Shown here: piece by piece, positions 5,851-62,030 of the stretch
How positions within the stretch are numbered: the first letter of the stretch is position 1
Layout of the letters: each line of letters begins with the position of its first letter
From: Leucoraja erinacea
Lineage: Eukaryota
Assembly: GCF_028641065.1 (NCBI RefSeq)
Contig: NC_073410.1
Coordinates: 310,001 to 374,000, forward strand
DNA: 64,000 nt
Direction: 5' to 3'
Notes under the pieces: generated by a model
Told to the model about the DNA's origin: nothing
The model's input: the letters and a program-made list of their open reading frames with translations, nothing else
Databases searched by the model: none
Position numbers and translations under genes: made by a program

Positions 5851-6950
5851 GCTATCTGGACTACACCTCTCCCCACCCTGCTTCCTGTAAGGACTCCATC
5901 CCCTACTCCCAATTCCTCCGCCTACGCCGCATCTGCTCCCAGGATGATGCATTCCACACCAGGGCATCTGAAATGTCCTAATTCTTCAGGGAACGGGGGT
6001 TCCCCTCCTCCACCATAGATGAGGCTCGCACCAGGGTCTCTTCCATACCCCGCAACACTGCTCTCTCTCCACATCCCCGCACTCGCAACAAGGGCAGAGT
6101 CCCCCTAGTCCTCACCTTTCACCCCACCAGCCATCACATACAACAAATAATCCGCCGTCATTTTTGCCACCTCCAACGTGACCCCACCACTCGCCACATC
6201 TTCCCATCTCCCCCCCATGTCTACCTTCCGCAAAGACCACTCCCTCCGCAACTCCCTTGTCAATTCTTCCCTTCCCTCCCGTACCACCCCCTCCCCGGGC
6301 ACTTTCCGTTGCAACCGCAAGAGATGCAACACTTGTCCCTTTACCTCCCCCCTCGATTCCATTCGAGGACCCAAGCAGTCGTTCCAGGTGCGACAGAGGT
6401 TCACCTGTATCTCCTCCAACCTCATCTACTGCATCCGCTGCTCTAGGTGTCAGCTGATCTACATCGGTGAGACTAAGCCGAGGTTGGGCGATCGCTTCGC
6501 CGAACACCTCCACTCGGTCCACAAGAACCTACCTGAACTCCCGGTGGCTCAGCACTTCAACTCCTCCTCCCATTCCCAATTCGACCTCTCTGTCCTGGGT
6601 CTCCTCCATTGCCAGAGTGAGCAACACCGGAAATTGGAGGAACAGCACCTCATATTTCGCCTGGGGTGTCTGCATCCTGCGGGCATGAACATTGAATTCT
6701 CCCAATTTTGTTAGCCCTTGCTGCCTCCTCCCCTTCCTCAGTCCTTGGGCTGTCTCCTCCCATCCCCCAGCCCTCGGGCTCCTCCTCTTTTTCCTTCCTT
6801 CTCCCCGCCATCCCCTATCAGTCTGAAGAAGGATTTCGGCCCGAAACGTTACCTATTTCCTTCGCTCCACAGATGCTGCTGCACCCGCTGAGTTTCTCCA
6901 GCATTTTTGTGTACCTTCGATTTTCCAGCATCTGCAGTTTCTTCTTGAAC
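5851..6950 (+). mobile_element. 5'-truncated Penelope-like retroelement: RT C-terminus/linker, Cys-rich motif, GIY-YIG endonuclease, then terminal repeat with hammerhead motif
   Basis: YLDYTSPHPASCKDSIPYSQFLRLRRICS from ~5852; ORF 6178-6714 contains CNRKRCNTC and LIYCIRCSRCQLIYIGET...RFAEH...VAQHFN; CTGAAGA...GAAAC at 6823-6847. Confidence 0.9.
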
Positions 6951-7154
6951 TTTTTAACCTATTCACTGGTTATGTACAACTCCAAATGTTCCATGACAAA
7001 TTCTCAGGCTGTTCAATGTCATTTTTAGAACAAGCTGCTGCCAGATTCAGTTTGGGACAATTTCATTAAAAAGGCAGATAGTTGAATTTGACTCAATCCT
7101 TCGGTGATGGAGGTTAATAATTGCAGACTTTTTTTTCTCTACTTTCAAATTCAG

Positions 7155-8815: not shown

Positions 8816-8870
<55 letters not shown>

Positions 8871-13149: not shown

Positions 13150-14937
13150 TCTCCTGGCAGCCTTGCCTTTACATTGGCACTTTTAGAGATCTAGTGCAGA
13201 GTGGAACCACATGCAGAACACCAAGATGTAATGGAATGTGACCTTTTCACCTGATTCCCTCACAAGCTGCATTCAGATTCCAGTCGGGGCAGGCAGCATC
13301 TCAGGAGAGAAGGAATGGGCGATGTTTCGGGTTGCGACCCTCTTGATCCCATTCCTTCTCTCCAGAAATATGTTGGTCCCACTGAGTTACTCCAGCATTT
13401 TGTGTCGACCTTCGATTTAAACCAGCATCTACAGTTCTCCCCTACATGTTCAGTTTGAAATATTTGATCCAGTAAACCCTTGCTTCACTGACTTGACCGA
13501 TGGCCTCTCCGGCCACAAAACAGACCGAGAGACAGAGGACAAAATAGACATTTGCATATTTTCCAAATGATAATTTTGGCAGCTTAAATTTAACAAGAGA
13601 TACAGAGGCATACTCTCAATAAATACTTGAAATATCATCAGTAATCAACTTCTGGGTTTACATGTAATTTAGATGAGATCACTGCATATTATTTTGTTCA
13701 TTCCTTGCTTGGAGAAATTGGTGCAAATGCGGGGCCCCTTCTGGATGATATTTTTGGATGCTATTAAAGTATCAGCCCTCAAATAATAAAATATGGTAGA
13801 ATTGGCACAATGTACAACTTGGAGAAGTATTACCTGACACCATATCACAAATCTGTGATAATGCAAGAATGAATACTGACAAATCTCTTTCCTTTTTGTC
13901 CAACTGAACAAAATATACTAACTGTGATCGTCAGAAACAGGCTATTCAGCCCAACTTTTCCATGCTGGCCAAGATGCTCTATCTAAGCTAGTCTCATTTG
14001 CCTGCATTTGGCCCATATCCCTCTAAACCTTTCCTATCCATGAAGCTAAAGCAATGTCTTTTAAATGTGATTTATATTCACCTCTACTACTTCCTCTGGT
14101 AGCTCGTTCCATATCCGCACCACCCTCTGGAAAAACCTACCCCTTAGGTTCCCTTTAAATATTTCCCCTCACATTTTAAATCCATGCCCTCTAGTTTTAG
14201 ACTTCCCTATTCTGAAAAAAAACCAATTGTGAGCATCCAGCTTATCTACACCCCTCTGTAGAATCACCATCTTTGCTCAGGGAAGAGAGACTCAGCCTAT
14301 TCTGTCTCTCGTCATAACTGAAACCCTTCAGCCTCGTGGATCATTTTCTGCATCCTCTCCAAGTTAATCACATCTTTCCTATAGTTTGGCGACCAGAAAT
14401 GCCCACAGTGTCCAGGTGCTGTCTCACTAACCTCCTAGATTGTGCTTTGATCAGTGGTGTTATTTAAAAATGAATAATCTCTTTGGCAAAATGTGATGTT
14501 TAGAATATAATCCAAGCACAGTAATTATTATCATAAAGTGTCTTGGTTAAAAATAATATTCTCTTTTTACCCTTTATTTGCAAACACATTGATTTATTAG
14601 TCGGATTTGGTCATTGGGCAAAGATAGCCTACATGACCTTACCTGAGAATCCAGCCTTCCAAGAATGGAAGGTAGATCATAGATAGGTGAATCCTGTTCT
14701 AACTCAAGTCCTGATCTTCAATCGTAGAAGCCACTGATAATTGCCAGGAGGCAGACATGCCTCTGACGGTCGTTTTATTGTTTCCTGAGCAAAGTGGTCA
14801 AATAACCGAGTCTCTAAATTGATAACTAAAGTAATCCAATTTTTTATAACATATCAAGAGTTCTAAATCCCACCCTCCAGCCTTCTGGCTACTCCTCCTT
14901 TTCCCTTTCTTGTCCCCACCCACCCCCACCCCCGATC

Positions 14938-14972
14938 AGTCTGAAGAAGGGTTTCGGCCCGAAACGTTGCCT
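14938..14972 (+). ncRNA. Minimal type-I hammerhead-ribozyme-like motif in a Penelope terminal-repeat fragment (14869-15033)
   Basis: CTGAAGA-A-GGGT(TTCG)GCCC-GAAA-C-GTT; catalytic activity not demonstrated. Confidence 0.6.
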
Positions 14973-15393
14973 ATTTCCTTCGCTCCATAGATGCTGCTGC
15001 ACCCGCTGAGTTTCTCCAGCTTTTCTGTGTAACCTAAATGGGGACTCCTGACTTGATTTGATTCAACCTTAATTAATGATCCTCATTTAGCTTCAGTTGG
15101 AGTTTAATTTAATGAGCGTTTCGTTAAACCCTTCCTCCAGTAAGTCAATTTGCTTATCTACTTCTGTGCAAATGACATTTCAAAAAGAAATTCTGTGTGA
15201 AGCATAACATATCAATTAAGATTTGCATTTATTTGAGCAGAAACCTCTGATACAGCAAAGATCATTCTTGTTATCTCTACGTTATGTTTTATTTAACGAT
15301 ACACTAACATGAACTGTAGATATTCTAATCGCCGATGTTATTCAACTGGGTAGCAGTGAGCACTTAAAACAAGTTTCTTTTTTTCTTGCCCAG

Positions 15394-19317: not shown

Positions 19318-19402
19318 AAGGTACACAAAAAAGCTGGAGAAACTGTTTCTCCAGCTTTTTTGTGTACCTTCGATTCTCCAGCATCTGCAGTTCCTTCTTA
19401 AA
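19318..19402. mobile_element. Collapsed palindromic Penelope-derived short element (perfect 26-bp hairpin)
   Basis: Arms 19318-19343 and 19345-19370 are exact reverse complements; flanked by CAAAGAGA(G/A)CA(C/T)TAA direct repeats. Confidence 0.8.
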
Positions 19403-20441
19403 CAAAGAGAACATTAAACTTGATTTTAAGGGAGTGTTTTGGAAACAACAAAAAAATGCTGCAATTGACAATGAAATAAGAGAGGGAAATGCAAATTGGT
19501 GTCTAGAAGGGAGATTACGGAGTGCAGTATTTTTGAGGCATATGAAGGCATCCTGCTGTGAGAAGGTCCAGGATGCTGAAAGCATAAAGTATGGGCTCCA
19601 GAATTCTGAATGACTTGCATTCTTGCCGAAAGTGAAGGCAGAGGTTCTGACTTGGGAACTTTGAGAATTCTGTAGCAGTTAGTCATACAGTTTTGGTAAT
19701 GTAGCTGTCTCAGTGATTTAAAATCTCATGTGTGGAGCTGATAGTTCCAAGAATTCTTCTTTCTGATGAAGAAACTGGTGGTGTAGATTCTATTGGAAGA
19801 GATGGCGTTGCATTTAGATCAAGGAAACTTTCAGTTCAAGCATTTGTTGCTATAGAACAAAGATTGATCTAATGAAATGGGAGGCTTTGTGTACATATGG
19901 TGTATTATGAGCTCAGTCAGCTGTACAACACGTTATCGAGGCAGCAAAGATTAGCAGACTGTTTCCCTGTACCAGTATATTTCCTGATTGTTTGGAATAT
20001 ACTCCTCCACAGAGTATTGTAAATACTCAACTATAAATCGAACATTCCTGGATGTTTTTTCCACAGTTGAACTCATTCACCTTCTCGATTCAAGCCATCA
20101 GAAAATGGGACTTGACTATCTGATTCCACCTCCCATCTTGTGCTCAACGACCAAGGAGGGTTCACCACTTTGAACGCTGTTTCAGCTGCTTTTAAAATAG
20201 CAGCATTCTTCCTTCACATTCCTTTTAGGCATTGTAACCCATATCCTTTCTGACTGAGATCTCCCTTGAATCTTCTTGCTCCACAAAATCCTCACAGTAA
20301 GCAAGGAATGTTTGCTTGTTGCGGGTGAGTCGTCTCCATTCCATGACGATGCCTCAGGAGAACGTTAGGCAGAGTCAATGTATACATTAATTATCTCCCA
20401 AAATACCTTGGCCTCTTGGACAACAGATTAGAAGGAAAAAA

Positions 20442-26845: not shown

Positions 26846-27780
26846 GTGTCACTCAACAGCGATAAGACAGAATTCCTCCTCATAGGCTCCAAAGCCACAC
26901 TCAGCAAAATCAATAACCCCACTCTCACCATCGACGGCACCACTGTCTCCCCATCTCCCCAGGCCCGCAACCTTGGCGTGATCTTTGATTCCACCCTCTC
27001 CCTTGAGCCTCACATCCGCCATGTCATTAAAACCTCCTTCTTTCATCTCCGCAACATCGTCAGACCCTCTCTCACACCGCCTGCTGCTGAAAGACTCATC
27101 CATGCCTTAATCTCCTCCCGACTGGACTATTGCAACTCACTTCTCCTTGGCATCAGCTCCACCTACATCAACCGACTCCAACTGGTCCAGAACGCAGCCG
27201 CCCGACTCATCACCCACACCAAATCCTGGCATCACATCACTCCAGTCCTCCAAACAACTTCACTGGCTTCCCATCTCCCACCGAATCACCTACAAAATCC
27301 TGGTCCTCACCTACAAAGCCCTCCACCATCTGGCCTCCCCGTATCTCACTGACCTCCTCTCCCCCTACCAACCCTCACGTCCCTCAGATCCACATCAGCC
27401 GGTCTCCTCTCCATCCACAAATCCAACCTCCGCAGTTTCGGGGACAGAGCCTTCTCCAGGGCAGCTCCCAGGCTCTGGAACTCCCTCCCCCAACTGATCC
27501 GCAATTCCGTGTCCCTCACCATCTTCCAGTCCCGCCTCAAGACCCATCTCTTCACCTCTGCCTATCCTTAGCCCCACGTCCCCCTCCCTTTTCATCTGTG
27601 CATTAATTGCCTCATATTGTGTTTTGAATTGAATTCTGTCTTTACTTTGTGTACTAGTCATATCTCTACTATTTATTTCATTCCCCTTACATGTTTTTCC
27701 TCTACCTGCTAAATATTTGTAAGGTGTCCTTGAGACTCTTGAAAGGCGCCCATAAATAAAATGTATTATTATTATTATTA
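26846..27780 (+). mobile_element. 5'-truncated L2-clade LINE (post-RT region, 3' UTR, (TTA)n tail)
   Basis: LNSDKTEFLLIG...RNLGVIFDS...SRLDYCNSLL...LHWLPI..RITYKIL...GDRAFS.AAPRLWNSLP across frameshifts; AATAAA then (ATT)n. Confidence 0.88.
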
Positions 27781-29244: not shown

Positions 29245-30490
29245 TAGTTCAGAGGATTGTAAAATTGCAAATATTACTCCACTGTTCAAGAAGGTATTGA
29301 AGCAAAAGAGGGGGAACTATACGCCGGTTCACCTGACTTCAATGGTTGGTGAGATTTTGAAATCCATTATTAAGGATGTGGTTTCTGAGTATTTAGATGC
29401 AAATGATAAAATAGGCCAAAGTCAGCATTGGTTTTGTGAAGGGGAGATGTTGACCGACAAACCTGGTGGAACCCTGTGAGGATGGATATAGATAGATGGA
29501 GGAGACTTGGTGGATGTGGTTTACCTGGATTTTCAGGTTCCACAGATGAGGCTGCTAAAGAAGACGAGAGACGAGGGAAGATACCAACATGGATTGAAGG
29601 TTGAGCTGGATGGCAGAAGGCAACAAGTGGAAATTAAGGGCTTTTTCTGGTTGGCTGCCAGTGACTAACGGAGTTCCACAGGGGTCGGTGCTGGGAACAC
29701 TACTCTTCACTTTGTATATTAATGATTTGGACAAAGATAGATGGAGAGGCAGGTAGTGGTGAGGGAGAGTGGGCAAATACGTGGCAGATGGAATACAGCG
29801 TAGCAAGGTGTAGAGTCAAGAATTATGGTAGTAGGAATAAAGGCATAGTCTACTTTCTAAATGAGGAGATGATTCAGGAATCAGAGGTGCAGGGGTCAGG
29901 GCTGCTAGTGCAGGATTCCCCAAAAAATAAATTTGAAGTTGAATTGGTATTGAGGAAGCCAAATGCAATGTTAACGTTTATTTTGAGAGAACTAGAATAT
30001 AAAAACTGAGATATCATAAAAGTCTGTTAGACTGCATTTGGGGAATTGTGAGTAGGAAGGATGTGCTGGCATTGGAGAGGATCCAGAGGAGGTTTACAAG
30101 AATGATCCTGGGGATGAGTGTTCTGGGTTTGTACTTGCTGGAGATTAACAGGATGAGAAGAGACCTCATTAAAACATACTGAATAGTGAAAGGCCTGGAT
30201 AGAGTGGATGTGGAGAGTCTCAGACCAGAGGCCACAGCCTCAGAATAAAATGTTCCTGCAGATAAAGATGTACATTTAGAAAAGTGATGAGGAAGATTTT
30301 CTTTAATTTCACGGGGTGGCGAATCTGTGGAATTCATTACCACCGGCGGCAATGGAGGCCAAGTCATGTTTAAAGTGGAGATTGGCAGATTCTTGGGTAA
30401 TGTTGTGGGTTATGAGAAGGCGGGAGAATAGGGTTGAGACGGAACGATAAACCAGCCATGTTGAATGGAGTAGACTCTACCCCAATAACT
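29245..30490 (+). mobile_element. Older degenerate CR1-like LINE RT fragment
   Basis: ANITPLFKK...[27 protein letters not shown] motifs across frameshifts. Confidence 0.8.
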
Positions 30491-30521
30491 GATAAACACG
30501 AGCTGCAGTTGTGGAACGTAC

Positions 30522-30685
30522 TCGTCTCCGATGGAAATGCCAGGCCAGACTTCGTCGACGTGAGAGAATTTTACAGAACCTTTCCAGAAGAGCCGCTCCA
30601 GTTCGAAGGCTCCAGGTGTCGTGTAATCATTGTCGGGGTCCACAGTCACTGGCCTGTAGGGGTTTGGGGTCCTGCCGGACATCAT
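30522..30685 (-). CDS. DUSP29: DUSP29 coding exon 1 (spliced CDS 630 nt, 209 aa)
   Basis: MMSG...[18 protein letters not shown]...[14 protein letters not shown] is diagnostic of DUSP29; GTACGT donor; upstream acceptor at ~30736. Confidence 0.92.
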
Positions 30686-30880
30686 CTCGTCACAGCAAGC
30701 GGCCCAACCCGGGCGGTTCTCCAAATGTAATCTGTCTGGGATGGAGAAAACGCAGACATGGTCACACACAGCGCGATGTGGGGCCGGTTTTCACCAAACT
30801 CCGCGGCGAGGCGCTTGTGAAGGGCGGACACGGAGTTTGCTCGTCAGTAAAGCGGGAGATGGGGGGGGGGGGTTACTCAC

Positions 30881-32655: not shown

Positions 32656-35492
32656 TCACTGCGGGCAGTCAGTCGCCTCCTTGGTCGCGGCAGCCCCGGA
32701 CAGCGACCCCACGATCGTCACAGGATCATGTAACTCTTCCCGCAAACGCTGCGGCTTCTTTGCGCTTAACTCCATGTCCAGGTTGCGTAACTGTTGCAGG
32801 AAGCCGCGGTTGGGTGAGATGGGTCTGTAGAGAATGACCCTGTGAATGGCGTGGAGCAGAGACCGTTGTCCATAGATCATCAGGTAGGCCAGCACTAGAG
32901 CGGCCGAGCGGCTCATCCCCAGTATGCAGTGGACCAACAGCCTCGCTGAGGGACAGAGAGATNNNNNNNNNNNNNNNNNNNNNNNNNNNNNNNNNNNNNN
33001 NNNNNNNNNNNNNNNNNNNNNNNNNNNNNNNNNNNNNNNNNNNNNNNNNNNNNNNNNNNNNNNNNNNNNNNNNNNNNNNNNNNNNNNNNNNNNNNNNNNT
33101 ACACACATACACACNNNNNNNNNNNNNNNNNNNNNNNNNNNNNNNNNNNNNNNNNNNNNNNNNNNNNNNNNNNNNNNNNNNNNNNNNNNNNNNNNNNNNN
33201 NNNNNNNNNNNNNNNNNNNNNNNNNNNNNNNNNNNNNNNNNNNNNNNNNNNNNNNNNNNNNNNNNNNNNNNNNNNNNNNNNNNNNNNNNNNNNNNNNNNN
33301 NNNNNNNNNNNNNNNNNNNNNNNNNNNNNNNNNNNNNNNNNNNNNNNNNNNNNNNNNNNNNNNNNNNNNNNNNNNNNNNNNNNNNNNNNNNNNNNNNNNN
33401 NNNNNNNNNNNNNNNNNNNNNNNNNNNNNNNNNNNNNNNNNNNNNNNNNNNNNNNNNNNNNNNNNNNNNNNNNNNNNNNNNNNNNNNNNNNNNNNNNNNN
33501 NNNNNNNNNNNNNNNNNNNNNNNNNNNNNNNNNNNNNNNNNNNNNNNNNNNNNNNNNNNNNNNNNNNNNNNNNNNNNNNNNNNNNNNNNNNNNNNNNNNN
33601 NNNNNNNNNNNNNNNNNNNNNNNNNNNNNNNNNNNNNNNNNNNNNNNNNNNNNNNNNNNNNNNNNNNNNNNNNNNNNNNNNNNNNNNNNNNNNNNNNNNN
33701 NNNNNNNNNNNNNNNNNNNNNNNNNNNNNNNNNNNNNNNNNNNNNNNNNNNNNNNNNNNGGCAGACTGAACTGAGTTGCATAATAAAGTTTGCTTTCTAA
33801 ACTTACAGGCGGCTGTTGTGCTACTGGTGAGCGTGCGACTAGTCTCGGAACCCCACGTTGCCGGGTTCCTGTTTCCAGCGCCTGTCCACTGGGCAGGCTG
33901 GTCCTAAACCAGTGGACAGGCGCGGTCTCTGGGTGCACTCTGTACAGTTCTGGTCGGCCCGTTACAGAGTGAACGGGGAAGTTTTGGAGGAGGTTTGTCG
34001 GAATGATGCCGGATTACAGGGTTTGAGCTACAGGGGGAGGTTGAACAAACTTGGGTTTTCTCTGGAATGTTGGAGTATTGCAAATTATGGCAGGCATAGA
34101 TACGGTAGATAGGTGGAAATATGTAAACCTAGAGGACATAGTTTTAAGACGAGAGGGTGGAGGGAAGGGGGTTAAGGGGATGTGCAGTGCAAATGTATTT
34201 TTACACAGAGGGTGGTGCCGCGGCAGATGGGCATAGAGGCAATGGGGCATATGGAGGTACATTAGATGGTTTCTTGGCATCACGTTCGGCACAGACACTC
34301 TGGGCCGAAGGGCCTGTTCCTGTGCTGTTCAACGCCCCCTGTCTGGGTCCGGCCCCGCTAGCAGCGAGTTGAGGGTCGCGGACACACCCCGCTGGTCACT
34401 CTGCCAGCGGCTCCGGCCACTCAGGGTGAACAACAGAATATCTCTCACCTTCTGGATCCCGCAGCGTCTCCTCGATGTGTTCCGCTGCCGGGTAGAAATA
34501 GCGGCTGTCAAACTGCGGGCAGTCGTCCGCCGCGAAGCCTCGGTACCGGAACCTCCTGCCGTAGAAGATGGTGTCGCCTTTGCTGCCGCTCTTGTTGTGC
34601 GCCGCGTTCAACACATGTGTGATCGTGAGCGACCAGCCTGTGGCGGGAACACAGTGAGTGAGGTCCCTACCAACGCCCCACCTTCACAGGTCTGGCCCGT
34701 CCCCGCGCCTCGTTACAACAGTTGTCTCTGTCAGGCCTCTCGCCGGCAGCGGGGACAATGAGACATCATTCATATTATCGTGTGCTGTAAGCTGGTGATG
34801 CAGCATGGTTAGGGTAGAGTTGATACGCTGCTGAGTGTTGTATATGTGACTTACTCAACAATACCTCTCTCTCCTTCCTCCCCAAAGGCCCAGTCTGATC
34901 ACATTCTCTTCAATCCAGCAGAGACAACGGGTTGTTTTCCCTTTTGACCAAATTTGAGCCTTTGATGTTATCCAAGGTCCCCATCCTGGGTTGTTGATTA
35001 GTACAGGTGTCACGGGCCACGGGGAGAGTGGGGTTGAAATGGGAAAGATAGATCAGCCATGATTGAATGGCGGAGTAGACTTGATGGTCTAAATCTTCTC
35101 CTATCATTTATGGAACCCGCCGGTCCTGAGCTTTGATGGACTGGCCTTTAAACGACTCCCGCGTTAGTTGTGGACTTGCTTGCTAACAGATGGGGCCAAC
35201 AGCTCCGGCCCAACAACGCCCCTCCCCGGCGCCCAGCAGCAGCTTAAAGCGAGCGGACAACGCGTGTGTGGGACTGGGGTGAGCGGCGAGGCCTGGTGGT
35301 CGCCTAAAACAACGTCTGTACTCACAGGTCTCCGATGTAAAGATTGGGCCAAACTTCATCGACGTGGTTCAGCGGCGCCCGGCTGCTCTCCAGCGCCGTC
35401 TCCAGCTCCAGGATGGAGGGGGTTCCCAGGTCACCGGGGGCGGAGACGGTGGCGGGACCGGGATCATTTTGGGGTGGAGACGTCGCCGCCAT
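32656..35492 (-). pseudogene. DUSP13A-like phosphatase paralogue with frameshifted exon 2 (exons 35492-35326, 34637-34449, 32945-32656)
   Basis: Exon 1 MAATSPP...PSILELE...[14 protein letters not shown]; exon 2 is 189 bp versus 218 bp in the neighbour and LVAHD is out of frame with ITHVLNAAH; exon 3 LLVHCILGMSRS...PNRGFLQQL; all splice sites canonical. Confidence 0.75.
32963..33759. other. N runs (gap or hard-masked simple repeat) with a 15-nt CA-rich island at 33100-33114
   Basis: Seen directly. Confidence 0.95.
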
Positions 35493-47293: not shown

Positions 47294-47487
47294 GACACAG
47301 AGTACTGGAGTAACTCAGCGGGTCAGGCAGCATCACAGAGTGCTGGAGTAACTCAGCGGGTCAGGCAGCATCACAGAGTGCTGGAGTAACTCAGCGGGTC
47401 AGGCAGCATCACAGAGTGCTGGAGTAACTCAGCGGGTCAGGCAGCATCTCTGGAGAGAAGGAATGGGCGAGACCCTTCTTCAGACTG
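47294..47487 (-). mobile_element. Penelope-derived short element with an internal 38-bp unit repeated four times
   Basis: CACAGAGTGCTGGAGTAACTCAGCGGGTCAGGCAGCAT x4, then CCCTTCTTCAGACTGA. Confidence 0.8.
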
Positions 47488-50495: not shown

Positions 50496-50833
50496 CTCTG
50501 TGCTTCAGCTTTATTGTGGCTGTCTGTTGCGATGTAGCCAACAGTGGGATTGTTTTTCTTTCAATCAAGCAAGGGAGATTACCACAATCTTGTGGCATCC
50601 AGTGTGAATTCACTTTATAGTACAAAACATTCTATCCTTGAAAGGCCTAGACCCTAAGGAACAAACCACGTCTTAATTTGAAGTATTTATGTAAATGAGG
50701 AACCTTCACATGTGTAATATCTAAGTATATGTAATATTATTTGAAGTATTTTTTCACTCGACTAAATTCTGCTAAATCAGATGTGTAATTCCACACAATG
50801 AAGACCTTTTGTTTGTTTTTTTCCAGTTAAACC

Positions 50834-51408
50834 ATGATGGGAATCCAGTTTAATATCAGACGCTGGAGCAGCAAACATGTTGCCAAGTGGCTAAAGGAGG
50901 AAGGCTTCAGCGATTATGTCGATCTTCTGTGTAATAAGCACAGACTGGATGGTGTCGCCCTGTTAACTTTGACTGAATATGATTTACGCTGCCCACCTTT
51001 AGAACTGAAAGTGTTGGGTGATATTAAAAGGTTAATGGTATCTATTCGGAAACTGCAAAAACAGCACAAAGATGTCCTGACAGAGATGGGTTACACCAGT
51101 GACGATTGTCCTGGTAATGTTACATGTGCCACAAACACTTCACAAGGCATGGACTGCCAGTGCAATGGCGTGGAACACTTTGGGAACAGTGGTGGTTCAG
51201 TTGGAGACACGAATAGTGAACAATTTCAGAATGGTAAATACCACAAACATCAAACACGAAGACTTGACCCCGAATACTGGAAGACTATTTTGAGTTCTAT
51301 TTATGTGTTTATAGTCTTCGGGTTTACATCGATTGTGATGGTAATAGTTCACGAACGTGTCCCTGACATGCAAACCTATCCACCTCTACCAGACATATTC
51401 CTGGATAG
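50834..51408 (+). CDS. SAMD8: SAMD8 (SMSr, sphingomyelin synthase-related) first coding exon: SAM domain and TM1
   Basis: [18 protein letters not shown]...[10 protein letters not shown]...[19 protein letters not shown]; acceptor at 50826 implies an upstream non-coding exon; GTAAGC donor. Confidence 0.96.
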
Positions 51409-52129
51409 GTAAGCATTACATAATGTGATGATAAAGTATATGCAAGTGAGTAGGAGGCATGCTGGAGTTATTGGGGAACGTGGGTTACCTCATCAAAATG
51501 AAGCACCTGTGGTTTGGGCTCCTGAAGCATCCTGGCAAATCTGTTCCCAGCAGGCTCTGATTTTTTTTGTAGCTTTTCAATCTCTAATCTATTAAATCAT
51601 TGTAGAATTGTACAGCATGTCAGCTCAATCCATTCTTACAGACCAAGGTTCAATGCTAGTCCCATTTGTCCATATTTGATCCATACCCCTCTAAATCTAT
51701 ATTTTCCATGAACCTGTCCTAGTGTCTTTAAATATTATTGTACCTGTGTCAACCACTTTGTCTGGAAGCTCTTTCCATATAACACCCTCTGTGTGCATTT
51801 TATGTAAACTAAATTAATGTTAAATGCATTTCTCTTGCAATTCTCTCCCTGTTTTACAACGGTATGCAGACAGAAAGCATGCCTGTAATCAGTGTATTTA
51901 ATTTCTCCATATTTGTATAAGCTGCTGTTCTGCAGAGTGATGTGGAGTGACTGGGCACTCTTCACCTGCTGCTCTGACAATCACAGTCCTAATCATTGCT
52001 TCCTGTCTGGTGATTTGCTAAACCCAAGCCAGGCACCATTTGGTGAGCACTGTTTCGTGCAGTGGGGATCAGACTGCTTCTCTCATTTTTACAATGCCAA
52101 AGCCGCACTGCGGATCTTTGGAAATTAAA

Positions 52130-52392
52130 GCTTAGTTTAGTTTAGAGATGCAGTATGGAACCGGGTTCTTATGCCCAACAAGTCTATGCCAACTGTTCAC
52201 ACTAGTTCTAGGTGATCCCACTTTTTCATCCGCTTCCTACACATTTGTGGCAATTTACAAACCTGCAGGTCTTTGGGATGTGGGAGGAAACCCTCGTGGT
52301 CAGAAGGAGAACGTGCAAACTCCATACAGACAGCACCAGATGTCAGGATCGAACCTGGGTCTGGTGCTGTGAGGCAGCAGCTCTAACAGCTT
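52130..52392 (-). mobile_element. V-SINE on the minus strand
   Basis: GGAGAACGTGCAAACTCCATACAGACAGCACC core; TTTAGTTTAGAGAT tail. Confidence 0.8.
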
Positions 52393-52861
52393 GACCACTG
52401 TTCTGCCCTGGCAATTTTCCAGATTTCCTACATTTTGGTCTTTTGCATTCCAAAAAGCATTTGAGAATCGACTGTGTTTTTGGTGGTTATACATGTCTGT
52501 TCACAACAGATGATGAACCTTGTGCATTCGTATTCTGGCCGCTAATTTTCAGGAAGTCGATGTTCGAATGTTTAGTGGGGGACCATTTGTGAAAATTATG
52601 GAACATTTGCATGTTAAAAAAGATGTACATGGAAAATATATTGGATACATATTGTTAAATATCTATTATGCCCTTTTGAAATTCTCCTGTCCTAAGAGCA
52701 AACTATGAAATACCACAAAAACCATAAAGGACACGCATTGGAATTTCAAGGACCATGTGACTAGCGCTGGTAATCATGTGCATAAAACTCTGAAGCTTCA
52801 AAGTTTTAAGAGCTGTTGCATAGCTTGTAGCATTCAAAGGTACTAACTGCTTCCCAACAAT

Positions 52862-52970
52862 GGAAACCCTTCTTCAGACCAGAAGATGGGTTTCGGCCTG
52901 AAACGTTGCCTATTTCCTTCGCTCCATAGATGCTGCTGCACCCGCTGAGTTTTTCCAGCATTTTTGTGTA
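52862..52970 (+). mobile_element. Penelope-derived short element with 12-bp target-site duplication
   Basis: CTTCCCAACAAT at 52850-52861 and 52971-52982. Confidence 0.8.
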
Positions 52971-53784
52971 CTTCCCAACAATTCCTTTTATTGGTTACTG
53001 GTCAGTTTAAAAACTGAATGATGACTAAACTTAACTAACTTTAAATATGTCGTTGATGCAAAACTATTGGAAGCAAGTTAGTCAAATGGGTTTTATTACA
53101 AGACCTATATAATTCAGGATGATATCCTGGATTTACCTCTGTCAGGAAGCACGTGTGAACAGTGAAGTCCCAAGCTTCCTCAGAAGGGGTCACTGATGAT
53201 ATGCCAACAGCACTCCATTGGGCTTCAGTCAACATGCCTTGGGTTCAGTGAATCCATTCATTTCACGGGGTAGGAATAGCTAAGGGGCAACTTTCAGGTG
53301 ATGTGTCTTTTAAATTAATTGAGTTAGCTTTAATCTGTTTAATTGGCTTTGAGTGTTTAAATCAAATTATATTAGCTTTTACGTTTCTGAATGTTTAACT
53401 GGTAGATATTCCCAAACTATCTGTTTAACAGTAATATCTGGAGACATTCCAAATGCTGGCTAAAGGCTCTACGTTGCCGAATTATTGAGTTAGGGTGTCT
53501 GCCTGTGGCTGTCTGTGGGTCAGTCGGTGTGTGTGTGTGTGTGTTCCCGGAGATTTCCATGCCAGTATATAGTTGTTAACTGGCAACCTTTTGAGTTGCA
53601 TATCAACAACAGGCAATGATGTCACCAACCTGGGATGTCCAATTCTGTGAGGTGGTACATTGTGTTAATTTGTATGGACTTTACCTGAACCGCTGTGTAG
53701 TACACAGATTAAACTTATTGTGGTTTTGTGGATCATACAATCAATGTTACCATTATTATGAATGGAGATTTTGCCTATCATCAG

Positions 53785-54340
53785 TTTTAGTTTAGTTTAT
53801 TGTCACGTGTTCCGAGGTACAATGAAAAGCTTTTGTTGCATTATAACCAGTCAGCAGAAAGACAATACATGATTACAACCAACCAATTTACAGTGTATAG
53901 ATTCATGATAAGGGAATAAAGTGTAGTGCAAGGTAAAGCCAGGGATGTCCGATCAAGGATAGTCCAAGGGTCATCAAAGAGTTAGATTGTAGTTCTGCAC
54001 TGCTCTCTGGTTGTAGTAGGATACTTCAGTTGCCTGATAACAGCTAGGTTGAAGCTGTTGGTGAGCGTTTTCACACCTATACTTTTTGCCTGATGGGAGA
54101 AGGAAGATGAGGGAGTGGCCAGGGTGCGACTGGTCCTTGATTATGCTGCTAGCTTTGCCGAGGCAGCGTGAGGTATAAATCGAGTCAATAGAAGGGAGGT
54201 TGGTTTGTGTGATGGTCTGGGCTGTGTCAAAAATTTGCTACAATTTCTTGGGGTCTTGGATGGAGCTGTTCCCAAACCAAGCTGTGATGTATCCTGATAA
54301 AATACTTTCTATGGTGCATCTGTAGAAGTCTGTCAGAGTT
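53785..54340 (-). mobile_element. Degenerate LINE 3' end, probably Rex/Babar
   Basis: TTTAGTTTATTGTCAC tail; minus-strand similarity to Rex-type C-terminus. Confidence 0.55.
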
Positions 54341-55059
54341 CAGAGCCCATGAATGTAATTCATAGAAACATAGAAATTAGGTGCAGGAGTAGGCCATTCG
54401 GCCCTTCGAGTCTGCACCGCCATTCAATATGATCATGGCTGATCATCCAACTCAGTATCCCGTACCTGCCTTCTCTCCATACCCTCTGATCCCCTTAGCC
54501 ACAAGGGCCACATCTAACTCCCTCTTAAATATTCTGTTCCATTAAATTGAAATGAATGGGACAGTGATGAGTCATGAGAAGCTTGTGGACTGAATGCAGG
54601 TGTTTCAACCTAATGTTTGCCCGCCCTGTGAGTTATTTCGATCTTTCATAGAGATACTGCGTTAAAGTGAAAGAAGTGTAAGTGGGTTGCTAAACGTTTG
54701 GTCTGGCTGCTTGAAAGGGAAGATCTTTCACCAGTCATTGGAATTGGAGAACATGTTGCAGTGATTGAGGAGTATAGCGGAATTCCCAGGATTATTGAAG
54801 GTGGCATTTTGGAGAGGTGGGAAGGATGGATGAAGATATGTGTTCTACTGATGTGTCTGGAGCTGATCTGTATCCCGCTGTATATTGACAGCCTCATCAT
54901 TGTACACAGCTCTGCCAATTTTGATGTTGCCTGCAAACCTACTAATCAACCCATCTCCAGAGATACTGCCTGGCCCGCTGAGTTACTCCAGCTTTTTGTG
55001 TCTATCTACATTTATGTCTAAGTTGAGTATGTATATCACAAACAACAGATCTCGGCATA

Positions 55060-56190
55060 GATCCTTGGCCCTCCTGAGAGAGAATCCACAGAAAACAACA
55101 GGCCCAGATGACTTTCTCGGTTCTGAGCAGTCCCACTGGCGGGAGTATTCATGAATATCTTTCACCTTTTTCAACTCCAATCTTAGGTTCCCAGTTATTT
55201 TAAGAATACCACCATCATCCCAGTACCAACGAGAAGCAAGCCCACATACCTTAATGACCACCACCTGTTGGATCTAATATCTACCATCATGAAGTGCTTC
55301 GAGAGACTAGTCTTGGTGCATGTTAATTCCAGACTCCCTGACCAGTGTGATCAATTGCATATTAGCCTACCAGGCCGGTGGCATTTCCCTGGCCCTAAAC
55401 CTTGGAACATCTGGATAACACCTATGTCAGATTCTTATTTATTGTCTATAGGTCCACTTCAACATGATCATTCCAACCAAATTCATCTCCAAACTCCTGA
55501 ACCTTGGATTCAGCACGCTCCTCTGTAACTGGGTGCTTGACCTCTTGATCAAGGGGAGGTAAAACATATTTTTCCCAATAATTCTCAATACTGATGTCCT
55601 ACAAAGCTGCGTTCTCAGCACCTTATAATACTAATTATATACTTGGGTCTGTGTGGCATAATTCTATCCTAACTCCATTAAGTTGACACCACTATAATGA
55701 GCTGAATCTTAAACAATGATGAGTCAGGAAAGAGAAAGTTTCCTAGCATAGTGTCAAGACAACAACCTCTCCATCAATATCAGTAAAACTGACTTCAGGA
55801 AGCAGGGTGGAATATATGCCCCAGTTTGCATCAATGGCGCTGGTGGAGATGATCGAAAGCTTCAACTTCCTAAGTGTAAATATCACCAACAATTTGTCCT
55901 GATGCAACAGCTAAAGTACACTATTGACTATTGACTCTACTTCCTCAGAAAGCCAAGGACATTCAGCATGTATCCAATGACACAACAATTAATGTTGACG
56001 CACTGTAGAAAGCATCCTATCTGGAAGCATCTCGTCATACAGCATGGAAACAGCTTTCTGTGGCCTAACTGAAAGAGTAATACAGAAGTTCGGACTAATG
56101 ATCTGGAATTGTGGGTTCCTATCAGATTACAGCAATAGAGGAATCTTAAGTTCAGCCAGACATCATGTTTGGCACAAACATTGTGGGACA
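55060..56190 (+). mobile_element. Highly degenerate Rex/Babar RT fragment
   Basis: TIMKCFERLV and LCNWVLD motifs plus further RT remnants. Confidence 0.7.
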
Positions 56191-56762
56191 CATCCTGAGT
56201 GGCGACTACGGAGGGTCAGGGCCTCGACCACGGGTGAACAAGGGAGGAGGAGGAGGAGGACTGTCTGAACTGTATTGCCTTCCATCACAGTGAGGAATGC
56301 TGTGGTGGATGTCTGTGTTGAATTATGTTGTATATTATGTCCTTTTTAATTGTAACGCCGCATGGTAAATTAATTTCATTGCACATTATGGTGCATGTGA
56401 CAAATAAATTTGAACTTGAACTCTTGAAGCACTGTTCCATGTTCTATGAGTAGCCACAAAATATGACTGCATAATTCATTCATTTCACCATGATATCAGC
56501 ATTGTATGCTTAATCTAATCTTGTATGACACAGCAAAATCCTTTGCTGGAATTCTGAGTTCCCTTTCTGCTGCTGCTTCTGGCTTATCTCCAAATTCTAC
56601 TGTTGAACTGAAGCATCTGCATGGATTTCTCTGATGAAGTCCCTGAGGATAGGGATGTGTTCTGACCTTCAATTACTTCACTTCTGTTTTCTTTGTTAGT
56701 TAAAACTCATGGTAAAGTGGTGAATGGGGCTTGTACATGGAAAGTGTATTTCCTTTGGGCAC

Positions 56763-57001
56763 AAAAAAAGACACAAAGTGCTGGAGTAACTCCACGGGTC
56801 AGGCAGCATCTCTGGAGAATATGGACAGGTGATATTTTGGCTTGGACACTTCTTCAAACTGAAAAAATGGCCTGACCCAAAATATCGTGAGTCTGAAGAA
56901 GGGCCGGAGACATCTTCTCTAGAGATGCTGCCTGACCCATTGACTTATTCCAGCACTTTGTGTGTTTTTTTGTAAACCAACATCTGCAGTTTCTTGTGTC
57001 T
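56763..57001. mobile_element. Inverted (head-to-head) Penelope-derived element with 10-bp target-site duplication
   Basis: CTTTGGGCAC at 56753-56762 and 57002-57011; arms ACACAAAGTGCTGGA... and ...TCCAGCACTTTGTGT. Confidence 0.75.
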
Positions 57002-57132
57002 CTTTGGGCACGTTGTGCAACTAATCAATAACTTCCCAGTAAAGATCAAATGATGCCAAACACTGCATCTCCAGGTAGATACCTTTCTAAATACATTTAC
57101 ACGTTGTTGTGTTGTGTTGTTTCTGTTGACAG

Positions 57133-57228
57133 TGTTCCAAGGATTCCATGGGCTTTTGCGATGGCTGAGGTGTGTGGTGTTGTGCTTTGCATTATCTGGT
57201 TGTTACTGCTGCTACTTCACAAACACAG
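57133..57228 (+). CDS. SAMD8: SAMD8 coding exon 2
   Basis: VPRIPWAFAMAEVCG...LLLHKHR; AG/GT boundaries, 96 bp. Confidence 0.95.
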
Positions 57229-57868
57229 GTATGTGTGACAATTACATTTGGTGCTCGAGATTTAGAGCTCTCATTTAAAAAAACACAGCTTAATGTGACA
57301 AACTTAAACCATGTATTTTCACTGAAGATAGACACAAAAAGCCGGAGTTACTCAGGCAGCATTTCTGGAGAGATGGAATGGGTGGCGTTTCCTGTCAAGG
57401 CCCTTATTATTTTCCATTGCTTTGTGAGACTGAGGATATTAAAGAAACACCAAATAATCTTTGGAAAAGTATCCATTTTAATTCCAATGAAGCTCTAAAA
57501 CTTTATTCTTGCAAATGGAAGTGCCTGTTTATTTTCCAATGAAATGCAGATGTTTTGTTAGTTGACCAGCTGAGATTGTGCATTTTGCACTTGCTCTGTA
57601 GAGTGTTGAATAGTAATTTTCTGAAAATATTGCTTTGGATTTATTGTGTGAAACCAAACACTCCAACAATGCTTCTTAAAAACCACGTCATTGTATGTAA
57701 CCTGATGCCCTCTGTACTAAATTGTTTATCTCAACCAGGTACTGCTGAAGATTCCCTGCTGTATCTTTCAATCAATTCAATTCAATTGAACAAGAAGCTT
57801 TGAGTGTAATGATGAAATGGGAATGAATTACAAAGTGTAACGCTGATATTTGTTGGTGTTTTGGTTAG

Positions 57869-57986
57869 GTCCATCCTGCTTCGCCGCATGTGTAGTCTGA
57901 TGGGGACAGTGTTCTTGCTGCGCTGTGTAACTATGTTTGTCACCTCCCTCTCTGTACCTGGCCACCATCTACAGTGCTCTGGGAAG
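57869..57986 (+). CDS. SAMD8: SAMD8 coding exon 3
   Basis: [39 protein letters not shown]; 118 bp. Confidence 0.95.
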
Positions 57987-58397
57987 GTACGTTTGTACAA
58001 ATCATCCCGCCTCTCCTTGGGCTGGCCATGCATTATCTTGTTTTAAAGTCTGCTTTACTGTTTTTTTAAATTTAGCTTTTAAAACTGCAATTAATTTTGT
58101 TCACTACATTAATGGAAAGTTCACATTTCTACAATATTTGAAATGCTGAATGTGAAGAATAAAGTTTTGGGCATTCAAAAAAGAACAAATATTCCGAACA
58201 CTGATATACATGGAACAGGCACCTGCAGTTTGCTTGACGAATATTTAAAGCTCAGGTGTAAGTGGCCAGTCACCTCCTCTTTCCCCCCCCACTGCCCCGA
58301 CCCCCCCCCCCCCCCGCCCCTCTCTGGCCCTGCCCCCGCTCCCTCACCCCGCCCCTCCCTCACCCCGCCACTCCCCCCACATCATATTTATTTGACA

Positions 58398-58599
58398 AAC
58401 TCAGCGGGTGCAGCAGCATCTATGGAGCGAAGGAAATAGGCAACGTTTCGGGCCGAAACCCTTCTTCAGACCTTCTTCAGGTTTCGGCCCGAAACGTTGC
58501 CTATTTCCTTCGCTCCATAGATGCTGCTGCACCCGCTGAGTTTCTCCAGCTTTTTTGTGTACCTTCGATTCTCCAGCATCTGCAGTTCCTTCTTAAACA
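58398..58599. mobile_element. Palindromic Penelope-derived element with intact hammerhead motif (minus strand, ~58437-58473) and 15-bp target-site duplication
   Basis: CATATTTATTTGACA at 58383-58397 and 58600-58614; ~65-bp near-perfect inverted arms. Confidence 0.85.
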
Positions 58600-58973
58600 C
58601 ATATTTATTTGACACATTTGTTGTGATGCACTGGTATCATTTTTCATCTTCTCGTACAGGAAATGGGCATCATTGTTGAGGCCTGATTTACTGTGTTGCT
58701 AACTGCCCCGTGAGTGTCCCATAGTGCTGTCCCTCTGGTGTGTGATGATTCCCGCACTGATGAAGGTAGTGAACAGATGATGCTCGCGGGAATCTGGTAT
58801 TTTCAGTCACCACCTTTATTGCAGATGAATGAACTACATTTGAATCCCCCACTGCTGAAGTCCAGGCCTCTGTAAGATGACCACAACCATGTTACAGGCA
58901 TGTTAATAGTTCTGCTGCAACTCTGACAGGAAGCTCAGCCATCTTTGCTCAGCAAGTGTATTTTCTTTTTCAG

Positions 58974-59124
58974 TTGTATGGAGACCAGTGGGCCAAGTTC
59001 CAAAGAGCACTGGCGATTTGGAGTGGTTTTGGAATGACACTAACAGGTGTCCATACCTGTGGAGACTACATGTTCAGTGGCCACACTGTTGTCATCACCA
59101 TGCTCAACTTCTTTGTTACAGAAT
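58974..59124 (+). CDS. SAMD8: SAMD8 coding exon 4
   Basis: Hand translation [50 protein letters not shown] contains the SMS CGDxxxSGHT motif; 151 bp. Confidence 0.95.
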
Positions 59125-60339
59125 GTAAGCATTAAACTTCACCTTCATTAGGTCACTGTCAGACTCAAAGACCATTATAAGGAACGGGGAGTGATCACTG
59201 TCGCAGTGATTCACACTATTGTGCAAAACGCTTCCGTTTAAGTAGGAAGGTCACATGTTGGATTTGTGTCAATGACGAAAGATTCTTTAAAGAGACTCCA
59301 TAAAATGAGAACATAGAACAGTACAGCTTCCATAGGGGCCCTACGGCCCACAATGTTTGTGCTGAACTTGATGACAAGTTAAACTGATCTCAACTGCCTG
59401 TACTTGATCCATATCCCTCTCTTCTATGTGCCTATCTAAAATCCTCTTTATCATCGTGTGTTTATTGAACTATAGATATACTTCCCAGAATAAGAGAATT
59501 CTAACAGACCTTGTTGTCTGTAAATATTGGTATCCACCAATTGTAAGAGTTAAGACAGGATATGTTTCACGAGTTCCTGTGCAATAGTGGCAATAAAGTA
59601 TTTGTTTTGTCATATTCCCTGAATAAAATGAATACATTTGTCTATCAATTCATTTCTCAAAATTGTCCACAATCAAGTTTGGCAAATAAGAAGGTATGAA
59701 AGGAATGATTATGAAGCAGTTAGCTGGTGAAGTGGGAGGATGCTTGTGCAGTTCTAAACACACCACAAATCAGTGGTGACAACCTGAGCATATCCATGTA
59801 ACTTCTACCTAGTTATTGCAGAATCTGTCATATAGCTTGCTTTAGTTTGGTTGTCATCATTTTACTGAACCAATAAATCACGTTTGAACTCTCAAACATC
59901 AATTAGATTACAGTAATTCCAAGAACTGGGTGCAATGACTTGTCAGTGATTCACACTCGTGTGCAGGGGGAAGGTCACCAGTCAGTGGCATATACTGCAC
60001 TCAGCACTTCATTCTGTTGTTCTGTATGATTTATCAGGGAAGAAATTCTATAACATTTCTTGTTCTGTTGTTGCTGATTGAGACCAGGAGCCATGCAGTT
60101 GTGGACTTGGCTGCCTGTTGAAACTCTAACTGCCTTTGTCATATCGATATCTGTGGCTTTTACAAACATGATGTTAATGTATGGAATATGTCATCAGCTT
60201 TAAATTTGCAGTTTAGTTGCCTACTGCCCGGTTAAGCAAGTGCCCAATTAGCGCAGCAGAATCTCAGCATTTTGGAAAGTCTACATTTGACAATGCATGA
60301 CTTCATGAGATGGTAAACGTGAGGTTGGAGTGGGTTTGT

Positions 60340-61018
60340 CCCCTCAGTGGTATGGTGACGCCTATCGGCAGAGGTTCTACTACAGTCCGTCTGTCTTTTT
60401 TTATTTTTGTCTTGTTAAGTGTATGTCTTGACTCTAGTTTTTATTATTTTTCTTTAGCTGTGTATATGTGGGGGTTGGGGGGGGGTGGTGGGGGAAACCG
60501 TTAATCTCTTCCCTGTACGGGGACCCGACCTGACATCGCGTAGCTGGCCGACTTCGGAGCGGGGAGAGCTGTGGTGGCGCGCGGCTGCGACCCGACCGGA
60601 GCTTCGGAGATTCTGGCCGCAAGCCCTGTGGACGGTGACATCGGGAGCTCACAGGTCCTTGGTGGGAGACCGCTTTTTGGAGCTCCTGCAATGGCAACTT
60701 CTCCCACCGGAATCGCGGGGTTTAAAGGACACGGAGCGGGGCCCAACAGCGCCCACCGGGGGCTTTAACATCGGGAGCCCCAGTTCACCTCGACGCTGCA
60801 GTTGGACTGCTGGACTGCGGGAGAAGAACAAGAGAAGAGATAAGACTTTTGCCTTCCATCACAGTGAGGAGGTGTTTGAGATTCACTGTGATGGATGTTT
60901 ATGTAAACTGTGTTAAGTGTGGGTCTTGGGTTTTTTTGTAATGTAAGACTGTAGAAAATGCAATTTTGTTCAAACCAAGCTGTTTAAATGACAATAAAAG
61001 GCATACTATTCTATTCTC
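60340..61018 (+). mobile_element. Apparently non-coding ~680-bp CpG-rich interspersed element sharing the 3' stem-loop of 208-455
   Basis: GCCTTCCATCACAGTGAGGA block at 60851, AATAAA and (CTATT)n tail. Confidence 0.55.
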
Positions 61019-61725
61019 TGGAGTTGGGCCAGGATCTGATCCTAGAGTTGGTGATGGGAAAGTGCAGCGATGGGAAAGTTTTGTCACATTGAATGGCGGT
61101 GCTGGCTCGAAGGGCCGAATGGCCTACTCCTGCACCTATTGTCTATTTCTGTCCCAGTTTAGAGTGCAGGGACATTGTACCACCCTTGAATACAAATATT
61201 GAGGCACTTTTAATGAAGTAATTTTACTCTGCTTCTGAAAACCTACCAGTGTACGTTTTATATTTTTTTCAGCTGATCTTTGCATTCTGGTGTATGCACT
61301 CTGAATCCAATTGTAAATTCCTGCCTTGTAGGTTAAGGGAAAGTGCCCCCCCCCCCCCCCCCCCCCCCCGGTGCTGGGTAGATTAGGGCAGGTGGGGGTG
61401 TGAGTGATGTGAGAGTCCTGAAGCCGTTTAAACAGGCTGCAGTCGGTGGCTAAGAAATTGAAAAAGCACTTGTTGGGAAAATATTTACAGGGTTCTGAGA
61501 TAGGGTGAGATTGGACCAGGTGAGATAATTTAATGAACCACAAAGGCACTGAGAGTCTCCTCCGTTTGTGTAATTCGAGGTGCAGCTTAGTTTTTAGTTA
61601 CAGTCAATCATTCATGTAATTTTCCTACTATATTTGTTTCTGTTTTGGGGATACTAGTCTTGGTCACTGAGCTGAAACTGAAAACTCAACCTAACATGTA
61701 ACCTTTCCTTTGCACCCCCATTTAG

Positions 61726-62030
61726 ATACACCAAGAAGCTGGAACTTCTTGCACACCTTGTCTTGGGTAATGAACCTGTTTGGAATCTTCTTCATCCTTG
61801 CTGCACACGAACATTACTCAATCGATGTCTTCATTGCATTTTATATCACCACAAGGCTCTTTTTGTATTACCACACACTAGCCAACACTCGAGCTTATCA
61901 GCAGAGCCGAAGGGCACGCATTTGGTTTCCAATGTTTTCATTCTTTGAATGCAATGTCAACGGTGCAGTACCAAATGAATATAGTTGGCCACTTTCCAGA
62001 CCAAGATTATTGAAGAGATTAATTGGATAA
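61726..62030 (+). CDS. SAMD8: SAMD8 last coding exon (spliced CDS 1245 nt, 414 aa)
   Basis: [13 protein letters not shown]...[10 protein letters not shown]...KRLIG*; Glu before the catalytic His is the SMSr (CPE synthase) state, where SMS1/2 have Asp. Confidence 0.96.

Follow-up and report, generated by a model that had tools for sequence, protein, structure and literature searches.

A short palindromic insert in an intron of Leucoraja erinacea, probably a recent, single integration of the block that ends a Neptune-type Penelope-like element on its 3' side

The 64,000-nt stretch of Leucoraja erinacea DNA analysed here as a whole (hereafter the window) holds an intron with a short, palindromic, hammerhead-bearing insert, and the question is whether such an insert multiplies as a ribozyme element in its own right or is one product of a Penelope-like element (PLE), a relic of which lies in the same window. 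The reading preferred here, with a probability of about 0.78, is that the 3' terminal block of a Neptune-type PLE inserted here once and recently, between the copies of a 15-nt target-site duplication (TSD), and that its mirror half was likely built at landing and not copied from a palindromic master.

Regarding its position, the insert lies within a gene with SAM and PAP2_C domains, which by name we take to be SAMD8/SMSr; the gene is transcribed from the + strand, i.e. the insert's + strand is the one in the pre-mRNA. The features of the site and of the rest of the window are as follows:

50831-62027, + strand, host gene with SAM and PAP2_C domains
57987..58973, + strand, host intron, GT...AG, boundaries set by eye
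58383..58397, + strand, left TSD copy, 15 nt, 80% A+T, present as a single copy at the empty site of organism C
58600..58614, + strand, right TSD copy, exact repeat of the left one
15360-17789, + strand, long Ser/Met-rich last exon with no Pfam match
23478-23924, 30410-30790 and 32656-33903, - strand, phosphatase-like exons
26786-27606, + strand, frames like the C-terminal part of a LINE reverse-transcriptase protein

The Ser/Met-rich exon looks like KAT6B, the phosphatase-like exons presumably belong to dual-specificity phosphatases, and the LINE-like frames are assumed to be L2/CR1-like. An assembly gap occurs at about 32950-33770, and the window contains 782 N.

The insert itself is 202 nt long (58398-58599) and sits between two exact copies of the 15-mer CATATTTATTTGACA (58383-58397 and 58600-58614); the repeat ends there, and this 15-mer is absent from the remainder of the window on both strands, in agreement with the preliminary description, which had reported an insertion of about 200 bp with an exact 15-bp direct repeat. 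The TSD score of the locus is 15; with tandem arrays excluded, all of 3000 random boundary pairs stayed below 11, and the sole pair with a score of at least 9 was a genuine TSD, at 52850. With tandem arrays included, 21 of 1500 random pairs had a score of 15.

As for its architecture, the insert is arranged head-to-head with unequal arms, 73 nt inverted and 119 nt direct. In the parental numbering used throughout, 0 is assigned to the T of TCAG-T-CTGA, which sense copies have at 6822 and 14940, and the parts of the insert are:

58398..58470, - strand, inverted arm, parental 0..+72, with a complete hammerhead core
58470, no strand, mirror axis, at parental position 0
58471..58480, + strand, junction piece of 10 nt, a reverse complement in place of parental +1..+10 and identical to 58460-58469
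58481..58599, + strand, direct arm, parental +11..+129
58567..58599, + strand, PLE 'tail', about 33-36 nt between two family-wide 3' ends (58563-58566 and 58599)

The two arms are complementary at 62 of 62 positions over +11..+72, and the tail is found on the right end of the insert only. The short 3' end of the family lies about 20-24 nt beyond the outer end of the inverted arm, and this outer end shows microhomology with the TSD at three of four letters (TGTC against parental TCTC). The junction piece exchanges 10 nt for 10 nt, in register, and in doing so takes CUGANGA off the + strand and makes a 4-bp stem I on the - strand. The insert had first been seen as two inverted copies of the Penelope end at 6820-6950: both arms do match that end, but they are not of equal length. 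A 26-codon open frame runs from an ATG at 58521 to the end of the tail (58521-58598); it might be the start of the ORF within the terminal block, as in other PLEs, and in a comparison with the N-termini of 12 long homologues none did better than shuffled sequences (best case, 23/200).

The origin of the arms is recognised from the PLE relic upstream in the window:

5855..6951, + strand, PLE relic, 5'-truncated (5' boundary approximate) and frameshifted

Its 3' features comprise a GIY-YIG domain, a stop at 6714, a pyrimidine tract, a hammerhead-like core at 6823 and the tail. The frame 6151-6714 encodes the GIY-YIG domain (PF01541, E 8.7e-5) with the linker CNRKRCNTC, of the form CX4CxxC, and the RT core is missing from the relic. 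The motif CX2-5CxxC occurs in 12 of 12 homologues of this frame with at least 750 aa, RVT_1 together with GIY-YIG in three of the five homologues scanned, and the named top homologues are from Mobula and Hypanus. According to the available text of PMC8557442, a CX2-5CxxC linker between RT and EN is a mark of Neptune-type PLEs; because the relic and its homologues have this linker, the parent is assigned to this type. The source block confirms that the PLE end carries a minimal type-I hammerhead, as previously stated, and the need for a PLE protein acting in trans holds as well, the insert being without RT. Compared with the relic end at 6821-6950, identity amounts to 70/73 for the inverted arm and 111/117 for the direct one (95-96%). 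The fit with younger copies is closer: 73/73 and 83/84, respectively, with the copy at 14868, and 60/60 for the direct arm with the copy at 19318-19403 (from 19345). The relic being about 5% diverged, the source is therefore a younger subfamily and not the relic; the window holds no ORF-linked copy of that young subfamily.

That the insert moved as a unit, as the preliminary description had proposed together with a search for an empty site in a relative, is borne out by contigs of four runs (organisms A-D, four of 24 runs) aligned on 57900-59100. In organism C, one contig of 1460 nt spans 57900-58377 and 58600-59100 with 4 letters in between, against 222 in the window, so that the insert and one TSD copy are missing there and one 15-mer is left; at the edge of a C-run, this absence is accurate to about one base. 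The empty allele of organism C could also result from precise excision between the TSD copies, instead of being the pre-insertion state. Right-flank contigs of organisms A and B cross the TSD and stop 19 and 27 nt inside the tail, so the right junction is found in contigs of two other samples; this suggests that the site is filled in both, with a contig reach below the 31-nt bridging rule. As to organism D, contig cover is lacking at 58638-58801, and it gives no information on the site. Mismatches with the window in the right flank are 3/520 letters for A, 8/528 for B and 8/501 for C; B and C are about equally distant from the window, and either order of events would fit. Between 62,186 and 101,284 contigs were placed per run, with depth concentrated on the insert: the summed depth is 6,000-17,000 at 58477-58479 and 13-40 in the flanks, a figure that is not taken as a copy number but indicates that junctions like the focal one exist elsewhere. 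The left junction and the axis, as parts of this locus, are crossed by no contig among those listed. A C-rich low-complexity tract (58284-58380) adjoins the left TSD, and it is within this tract or at its edge that the contigs from organisms A and B stop.

The copies of the family in the window place the insert among its relatives. A profile search gave 23 hits, and 0 on the reversed window; these were merged by eye to 18 loci. Seven of them are inverted, all with different arm lengths; five centre on position 0 (1611, 47484, about 52878, 56858 and 58470), and the remaining two do not, 19344 being centred on +70 and 13341/13343 being off-axis. The ends of the inverted arms and the sister insertions are:

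1611, about +5; 47484, about +7; 52878, about +17; 56858, about +23 (inverted-arm ends)
58470, +72; 19344, about +95; 13341/13343, about +70 (inverted-arm ends)
19318..19403, no strand, sister insertion of 86 nt, TSD 10/12, hammerhead absent
52862..52970, no strand, sister insertion with a 17-nt inverted arm, centre at most 1 nt from position 0, short 3' end, exact 12-nt TSD
14868..15031, + strand, non-inverted sister insertion with its start in the pyrimidine tract (about -65) and the short 3' end

In the copy at 19318, the left 53 nt are a perfect palindrome (26/26 pairs, 1-nt centre at 19344), the left end is the short 3' end and the right end is that of the tail; a micro-palindrome was looked for at its axis, and none was found. 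The copy at 14868 has an intact hammerhead core with a 2-bp stem I; it is not inverted and extends 65 nt further upstream, and its 73/73 identity with the left arm of the insert indicates that palindromic and ordinary copies come from one source sequence. Shared endpoints, which the preliminary description would expect of a mobile palindrome, were found, if both ends are taken together with the junction, neither at the seven inverted loci of the window nor among the joints and loose ends listed from the contigs; the junctions of the family vary widely. Seven of the 15 joints listed (of 991, four runs) start at 58470/58471 and lead to differing points of the direct arm, and one listed joint centres on the palindromic AACGTT, in three of four runs; the 24 loose ends listed (of 1451) do not include the left end 58398. 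A fixed palindromic subfamily, moderately common, could lie beyond the listed joints and loose ends. Two further arrangements of the PLE block were observed. At 56771-56995, an old palindromic copy (axis 56858) is followed directly, after its right arm, by a second sense copy from -2; it has an internal deletion, and combines a partial tandem with an inversion. At 47296-47448, on the minus strand, a 38-nt unit of the PLE block occurs four times in head-to-tail order with 99% similarity; this minisatellite, derived from the PLE end, adjoins an older copy that has a 7-bp fold-back. The occurrences of TCAGACTGA at 29171 and 63679 were considered as family copies and discarded, as the profile search had no match there.

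Both ends of the block recur in the family. Regarding the 3' side, loose ends at 58563-58566 and 58599 occur in four of four runs with A+T-rich flanks, 33-36 nt apart; in the window, of the 17 3' ends printed and read by eye, six run into the tail, ten are at the short end (which falls at +91..+96), and the last is the left arm of the insert, at +72. On the 5' side, nine of the 18 loci start or fold back within -4..+1 (1611, 3849, 4194, 22313, 47484, 52878, 56858, 56890 and 58470), a clustering with a binomial P of 3e-6 against a uniform 75-nt span, for an interval chosen post hoc and ends read by eye. With its recurrent 5' end, the insert fits the other option of the preliminary description, an extreme truncation product. 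Young and old subfamilies share this start alike; the upstream letters of these loci are mutually unrelated and differ from the pyrimidine tract, and older subfamilies may have been different upstream. Two of the four non-inverted copies, 4194 and 56890, have G for the parental C just before A(-2). Loose ends at 58471 number 661, 674, 578 and 638 in the four runs, and they were not counted for the hotspot because any longer copy runs loose there. Position 0 is at the same time the axis of the micro-palindrome and the 5' edge of the hammerhead, and it directly follows a pyrimidine tract with CAG at its end, which is splice-acceptor-like; it also sits within the initiator-like TCAGTCT, a fit to the initiator consensus YYANWYY. 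Any of these overlapping features may underlie the hotspot.

As for the hammerhead, its parts at the focal locus are:

58438..58473, - strand, minimal type-I hammerhead motif: CUGAAGA at 58469-58463, bulged A, stem II at 58461-58450
58449-58442, - strand, 3' part of the hammerhead, GAAACGUU, with the predicted cut between 58442 and 58441
58473-58470, - strand, 5' strand of stem I, made by the junction

A descriptor scan of the window found two complete motifs, one at 58469 (-) with a 4-bp stem I and one at 14941 (+) with a 2-bp stem I. The focal core has CUGANGA, GAAA and NUH, a base between 9 and 10.1, the pair G10.1-C11.1 and a palindromic 15.2-16.2. The minus-strand string given in the preliminary description is correct to the letter, and stems I and II measure 4 bp each; its UUCG loop is closed by U-G, while the extra-stable UUCG tetraloop has a C-G closing pair. 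The 4-bp stem I is not parental, because the sense copies have CAGT at this place and pair over 2 bp; AGGT occurs in one of ten aligned copies and derives from the piece at 58471-58480, which makes this stem an accident of the junction. On the + strand, the one transcribed with the host gene, the arm has no CUGANGA box.

Folding predictions agree with a hammerhead that is likely inherited, inactive cargo. The minimum-energy fold of the isolated 41-mer consists of stems I and II (z -0.34), and 68 of 200 shuffles are as good; the predicted pairing probability of these stems decreases to about 0.06 in the 83-nt left arm and to 0.0000 in the whole minus strand, where forcing them is predicted to cost 38.7 kcal/mol. 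In minus-strand transcription the antisense arm would come first, and in context a 62-bp hairpin is predicted to trap the core. Comparison of ten window copies shows that 87% of the stem II cells and 60% of the stem I cells pair; values as high as those observed arise in 90-213 of 500 shuffles, and the cells paired and the covariation score are above all six slid controls. Rfam at gathering gave 0 matches over the window, and with E up to 10 over 58300-58700 none of the 19 sub-threshold matches was a hammerhead; 13 of these 19 are microRNA hairpin models, set aside as reflecting the long hairpin and not as evidence of a family. The 25-nt core pattern had 0 matches in metagenome contigs, and no 5' pile-up at the predicted cut 58498/58499 appears among the 24 loose ends listed of 1451. 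At position 17 (58498; 58442 in the other arm) the young subfamily has U where older copies have C, and contigs of four of four runs show both. For 58398-58542 on the host pre-mRNA strand, the predicted fold is a hairpin of 63 bp around a 19-nt loop, on which editing or small-RNA processing could act.

Most of these traits have counterparts in described systems, for which the statements below follow the available parts of the respective papers. In described PLEs, inverted pLTRs can lie head-to-head around a palindrome at their junction, with a 31-bp tail on one side, an empty site and TSDs of 8-10 bp (PMC3846280), and both inverted pLTRs and 3' extensions are among their known features (PMC8969392). 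The focal locus has the same inverted block, junction palindrome, one-sided tail of 30-40 nt, TSD, hammerhead in the terminal block and empty site as inverted-pLTR PLE insertions (Arkhipova et al. 2013, PMC3846280; Craig et al. 2021, PMC8557442); judged by these traits it belongs with the PLE insertions whose terminal block is inverted. It differs from the described cases in that the whole insert is the inverted junction, with the ORF absent, that the TSD has 15 nt instead of the 8-10 of the rotifer examples, and that the family is very abundant with a 5' stop piling up at one nucleotide. In PAc, the Poseidon of Anolis carolinensis, two internal RT start sites bound a 30-40 nt tail, and both strands are nicked and extended (Frangieh et al. 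2024, PMC11167929); the two 3' ends around the tail, the A+T-rich targets and the hammerhead upstream of the tail are common to PAc and to the family described here. PAc is of the Penelope/Poseidon clade, unlike the relic with its Neptune-type CX4CxxC linker; its hammerhead is dispensable for extension, and the inverted 5' junction is not treated in the part of PMC11167929 at hand. With the minimal PLE hammerhead (Cervera and De la Pena 2014, PMC4209133) the focal motif shares the core boxes, the extra 9/10.1 base, G10.1-C11.1 and the palindromic 15.2-16.2. Such hammerheads show no cleavage as monomers and low cleavage as dimers; they come in pairs on opposite strands, 100-700 bp apart, with scattered single motifs from truncated PLEs (PMC4209133). 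The differences are the family's natural stem I of 2 bp (as in a D. virilis variant), the U at position 17, and a core on one strand only at the focal locus. Non-LTR retrozymes (Li et al. bioRxiv 10.64898/2026.07.22.740005; Cervera and De la Pena 2020, PMC7229834) are also short, non-coding, related to PLE pLTRs and endowed with a type-I hammerhead, but they are built of head-to-tail tandem units with at least two consecutive hammerheads, while the insert is head-to-head with one core; no tandem array was found over it, so the tandem units proper to retrozymes are lacking. The literature covered, with Repbase, Dfam, most subscription papers and supplements outside its scope, holds nothing on the elasmobranch family or on a 5' hotspot; the supplements of PMC4209133 and of the bioRxiv preprint may list such motifs.

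In the preferred reading, the insert would arise in few steps. An A+T-rich 15-mer is duplicated around it. By analogy with the biochemistry of PAc, the RT/GIY-YIG protein would nick the target and start the cDNA inside its own RNA, at the tail end 58599, the outer one of the two start sites; the cDNA would halt at or near parental position 0, which in the window is the favoured 5' stop of the family. Its end may then fold back on the 4+4 micro-palindrome TCAG-A-CTGA and copy itself for 72 nt, after which the copied arm would join the other target end at the 3-of-4 microhomology; alternatively, a second cDNA from the other strand might meet the first at the micro-palindrome and give the same product. 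A template slip or micro-inversion of 10 nt at the axis, visible in the sequence, would account for the loss of the + core and the 4-bp stem I on the - strand. For inverted pLTRs, self-priming on an antisense template has been proposed in the available text of PMC3846280, and the scheme fits this proposal because the cDNA itself is an antisense template. The arms of 5-72 nt (+5, +7, +17 and +72) end off the start sites, which favours fold-back, and the copy at 19318, with its arm ending at the short start site and its axis without micro-palindrome, favours two-strand priming, so both processes may occur. Twin priming on one single-copy RNA was rejected, since both arms copy the same 62 nt. Ribozyme cleavage was rejected as the cause of the axis, which lies 28 nt 5' of the predicted cut; stem III junctions, moreover, keep AACGTT.

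Among the competing explanations, the one with the most weight, though an unlikely one, is that a short, defined sense RNA, about 95-130 nt long and with its start on the 5' edge of the hammerhead, usually serves as template and is mobilised by the PLE protein, with the mirror arm again made at landing. Such an RNA might be transcribed from TCAGTCT as an initiator-like start, owe its end to processing, or belong to a short non-autonomous family. A strong 5' hotspot is also what a defined RNA would give, and the nine loci with unrelated upstream letters, the agreement of TCAGTCT with the initiator consensus and the internal promoter of Penelope point the same way, as does, weakly, the G before A(-2) in 4194 and 56890, which resembles a reverse-transcribed cap. 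An initiator-like TCACT also occurs in a rotifer pLTR, according to the accessible text of PMC3846280. However, stalling or fold-back at the micro-palindrome/pyrimidine-CAG site would suffice for the hotspot, and the young-sequence copy at 14868 extends upstream with 73/73 identity to the left arm, so that no private lineage is seen; in D. virilis Penelope, an intron end, and not a transcription start, is placed at the 5' end of helix I in the portion of PMC4209133 available.

It is considerably less probable that the palindrome of about 200 nt is a non-autonomous ribozyme element, transcribed, self-cleaving and copied as a unit, which was the main proposal of the preliminary description and is not supported by the data. 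The TSD and the empty site, the complete core whose isolated 41-mer folds into stems I and II, the mirror axis common to five window loci and the contig depth concentrated on the insert would all suit it, yet insertion in one piece is no proof of a palindromic template. Arm lengths differ at all seven inverted loci, with the sister arm ends scattered from about +5 to +95, and the inverted sister at 19318-19403 has a TSD, no hammerhead and 60/60 identity to the right arm; together, these argue against the palindrome as a replicating unit. The left end and a pile-up at the cut site are missing from the loose ends listed, the stem I of the insert occurs in one of ten copies, shuffled sequences fold about as well as the isolated 41-mer, and sequestration of the core is predicted in context; in addition, hammerhead cleavage is unnecessary for PAc extension in vitro, going by the part of PMC11167929 consulted. 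The least credible of all is that the palindrome, or at least the 10-nt piece, is due to a template switch in replication after insertion or to an assembly error. The 10-for-10 swap in register does look like an in-place micro-inversion, and no listed contig crosses the left junction or the axis; against this, the left arm lies directly on the TSD, inverted copies with intact TSDs recur (19318, 52862), and the right junction is present in the contigs of two other samples. Such an origin may apply to the 10-nt piece but hardly to the whole arm.

In conclusion, the focal locus is an ordinary recent PLE insertion, the product of a known class, and a clean specimen of it, with TSD, empty site, tail and mirror axis readable in 232 nt. 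It places a predicted perfect RNA hairpin of 62 bp in a host intron and provides a presence/absence marker between close relatives. For the family, its value lies in the origin of the head-to-head inverted ends of PLEs, which in print (PMC3846280, as far as its available text goes) is a hypothesis only: with a sharp 5' hotspot and many young copies, junction counts could test fold-back against two-strand priming. A more general proposal, put forward tentatively and as possible though doubtful, is that, among these fishes, Neptune PLEs most often yield a run-off copy of 95-130 nt, from either of the two tail start sites to a fixed RNA 5' end beside the hammerhead, at an initiator-like TCAGT doubling as a micro-palindrome, and that run-off near the cap seeds the fold-back that gives the inverted pLTR. 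If the RNA 5' end is indeed fixed, tens of thousands of young, species-polymorphic junctions would form a natural record of the process, and the origin of the PLE head-to-head inverted repeats would be directly testable.
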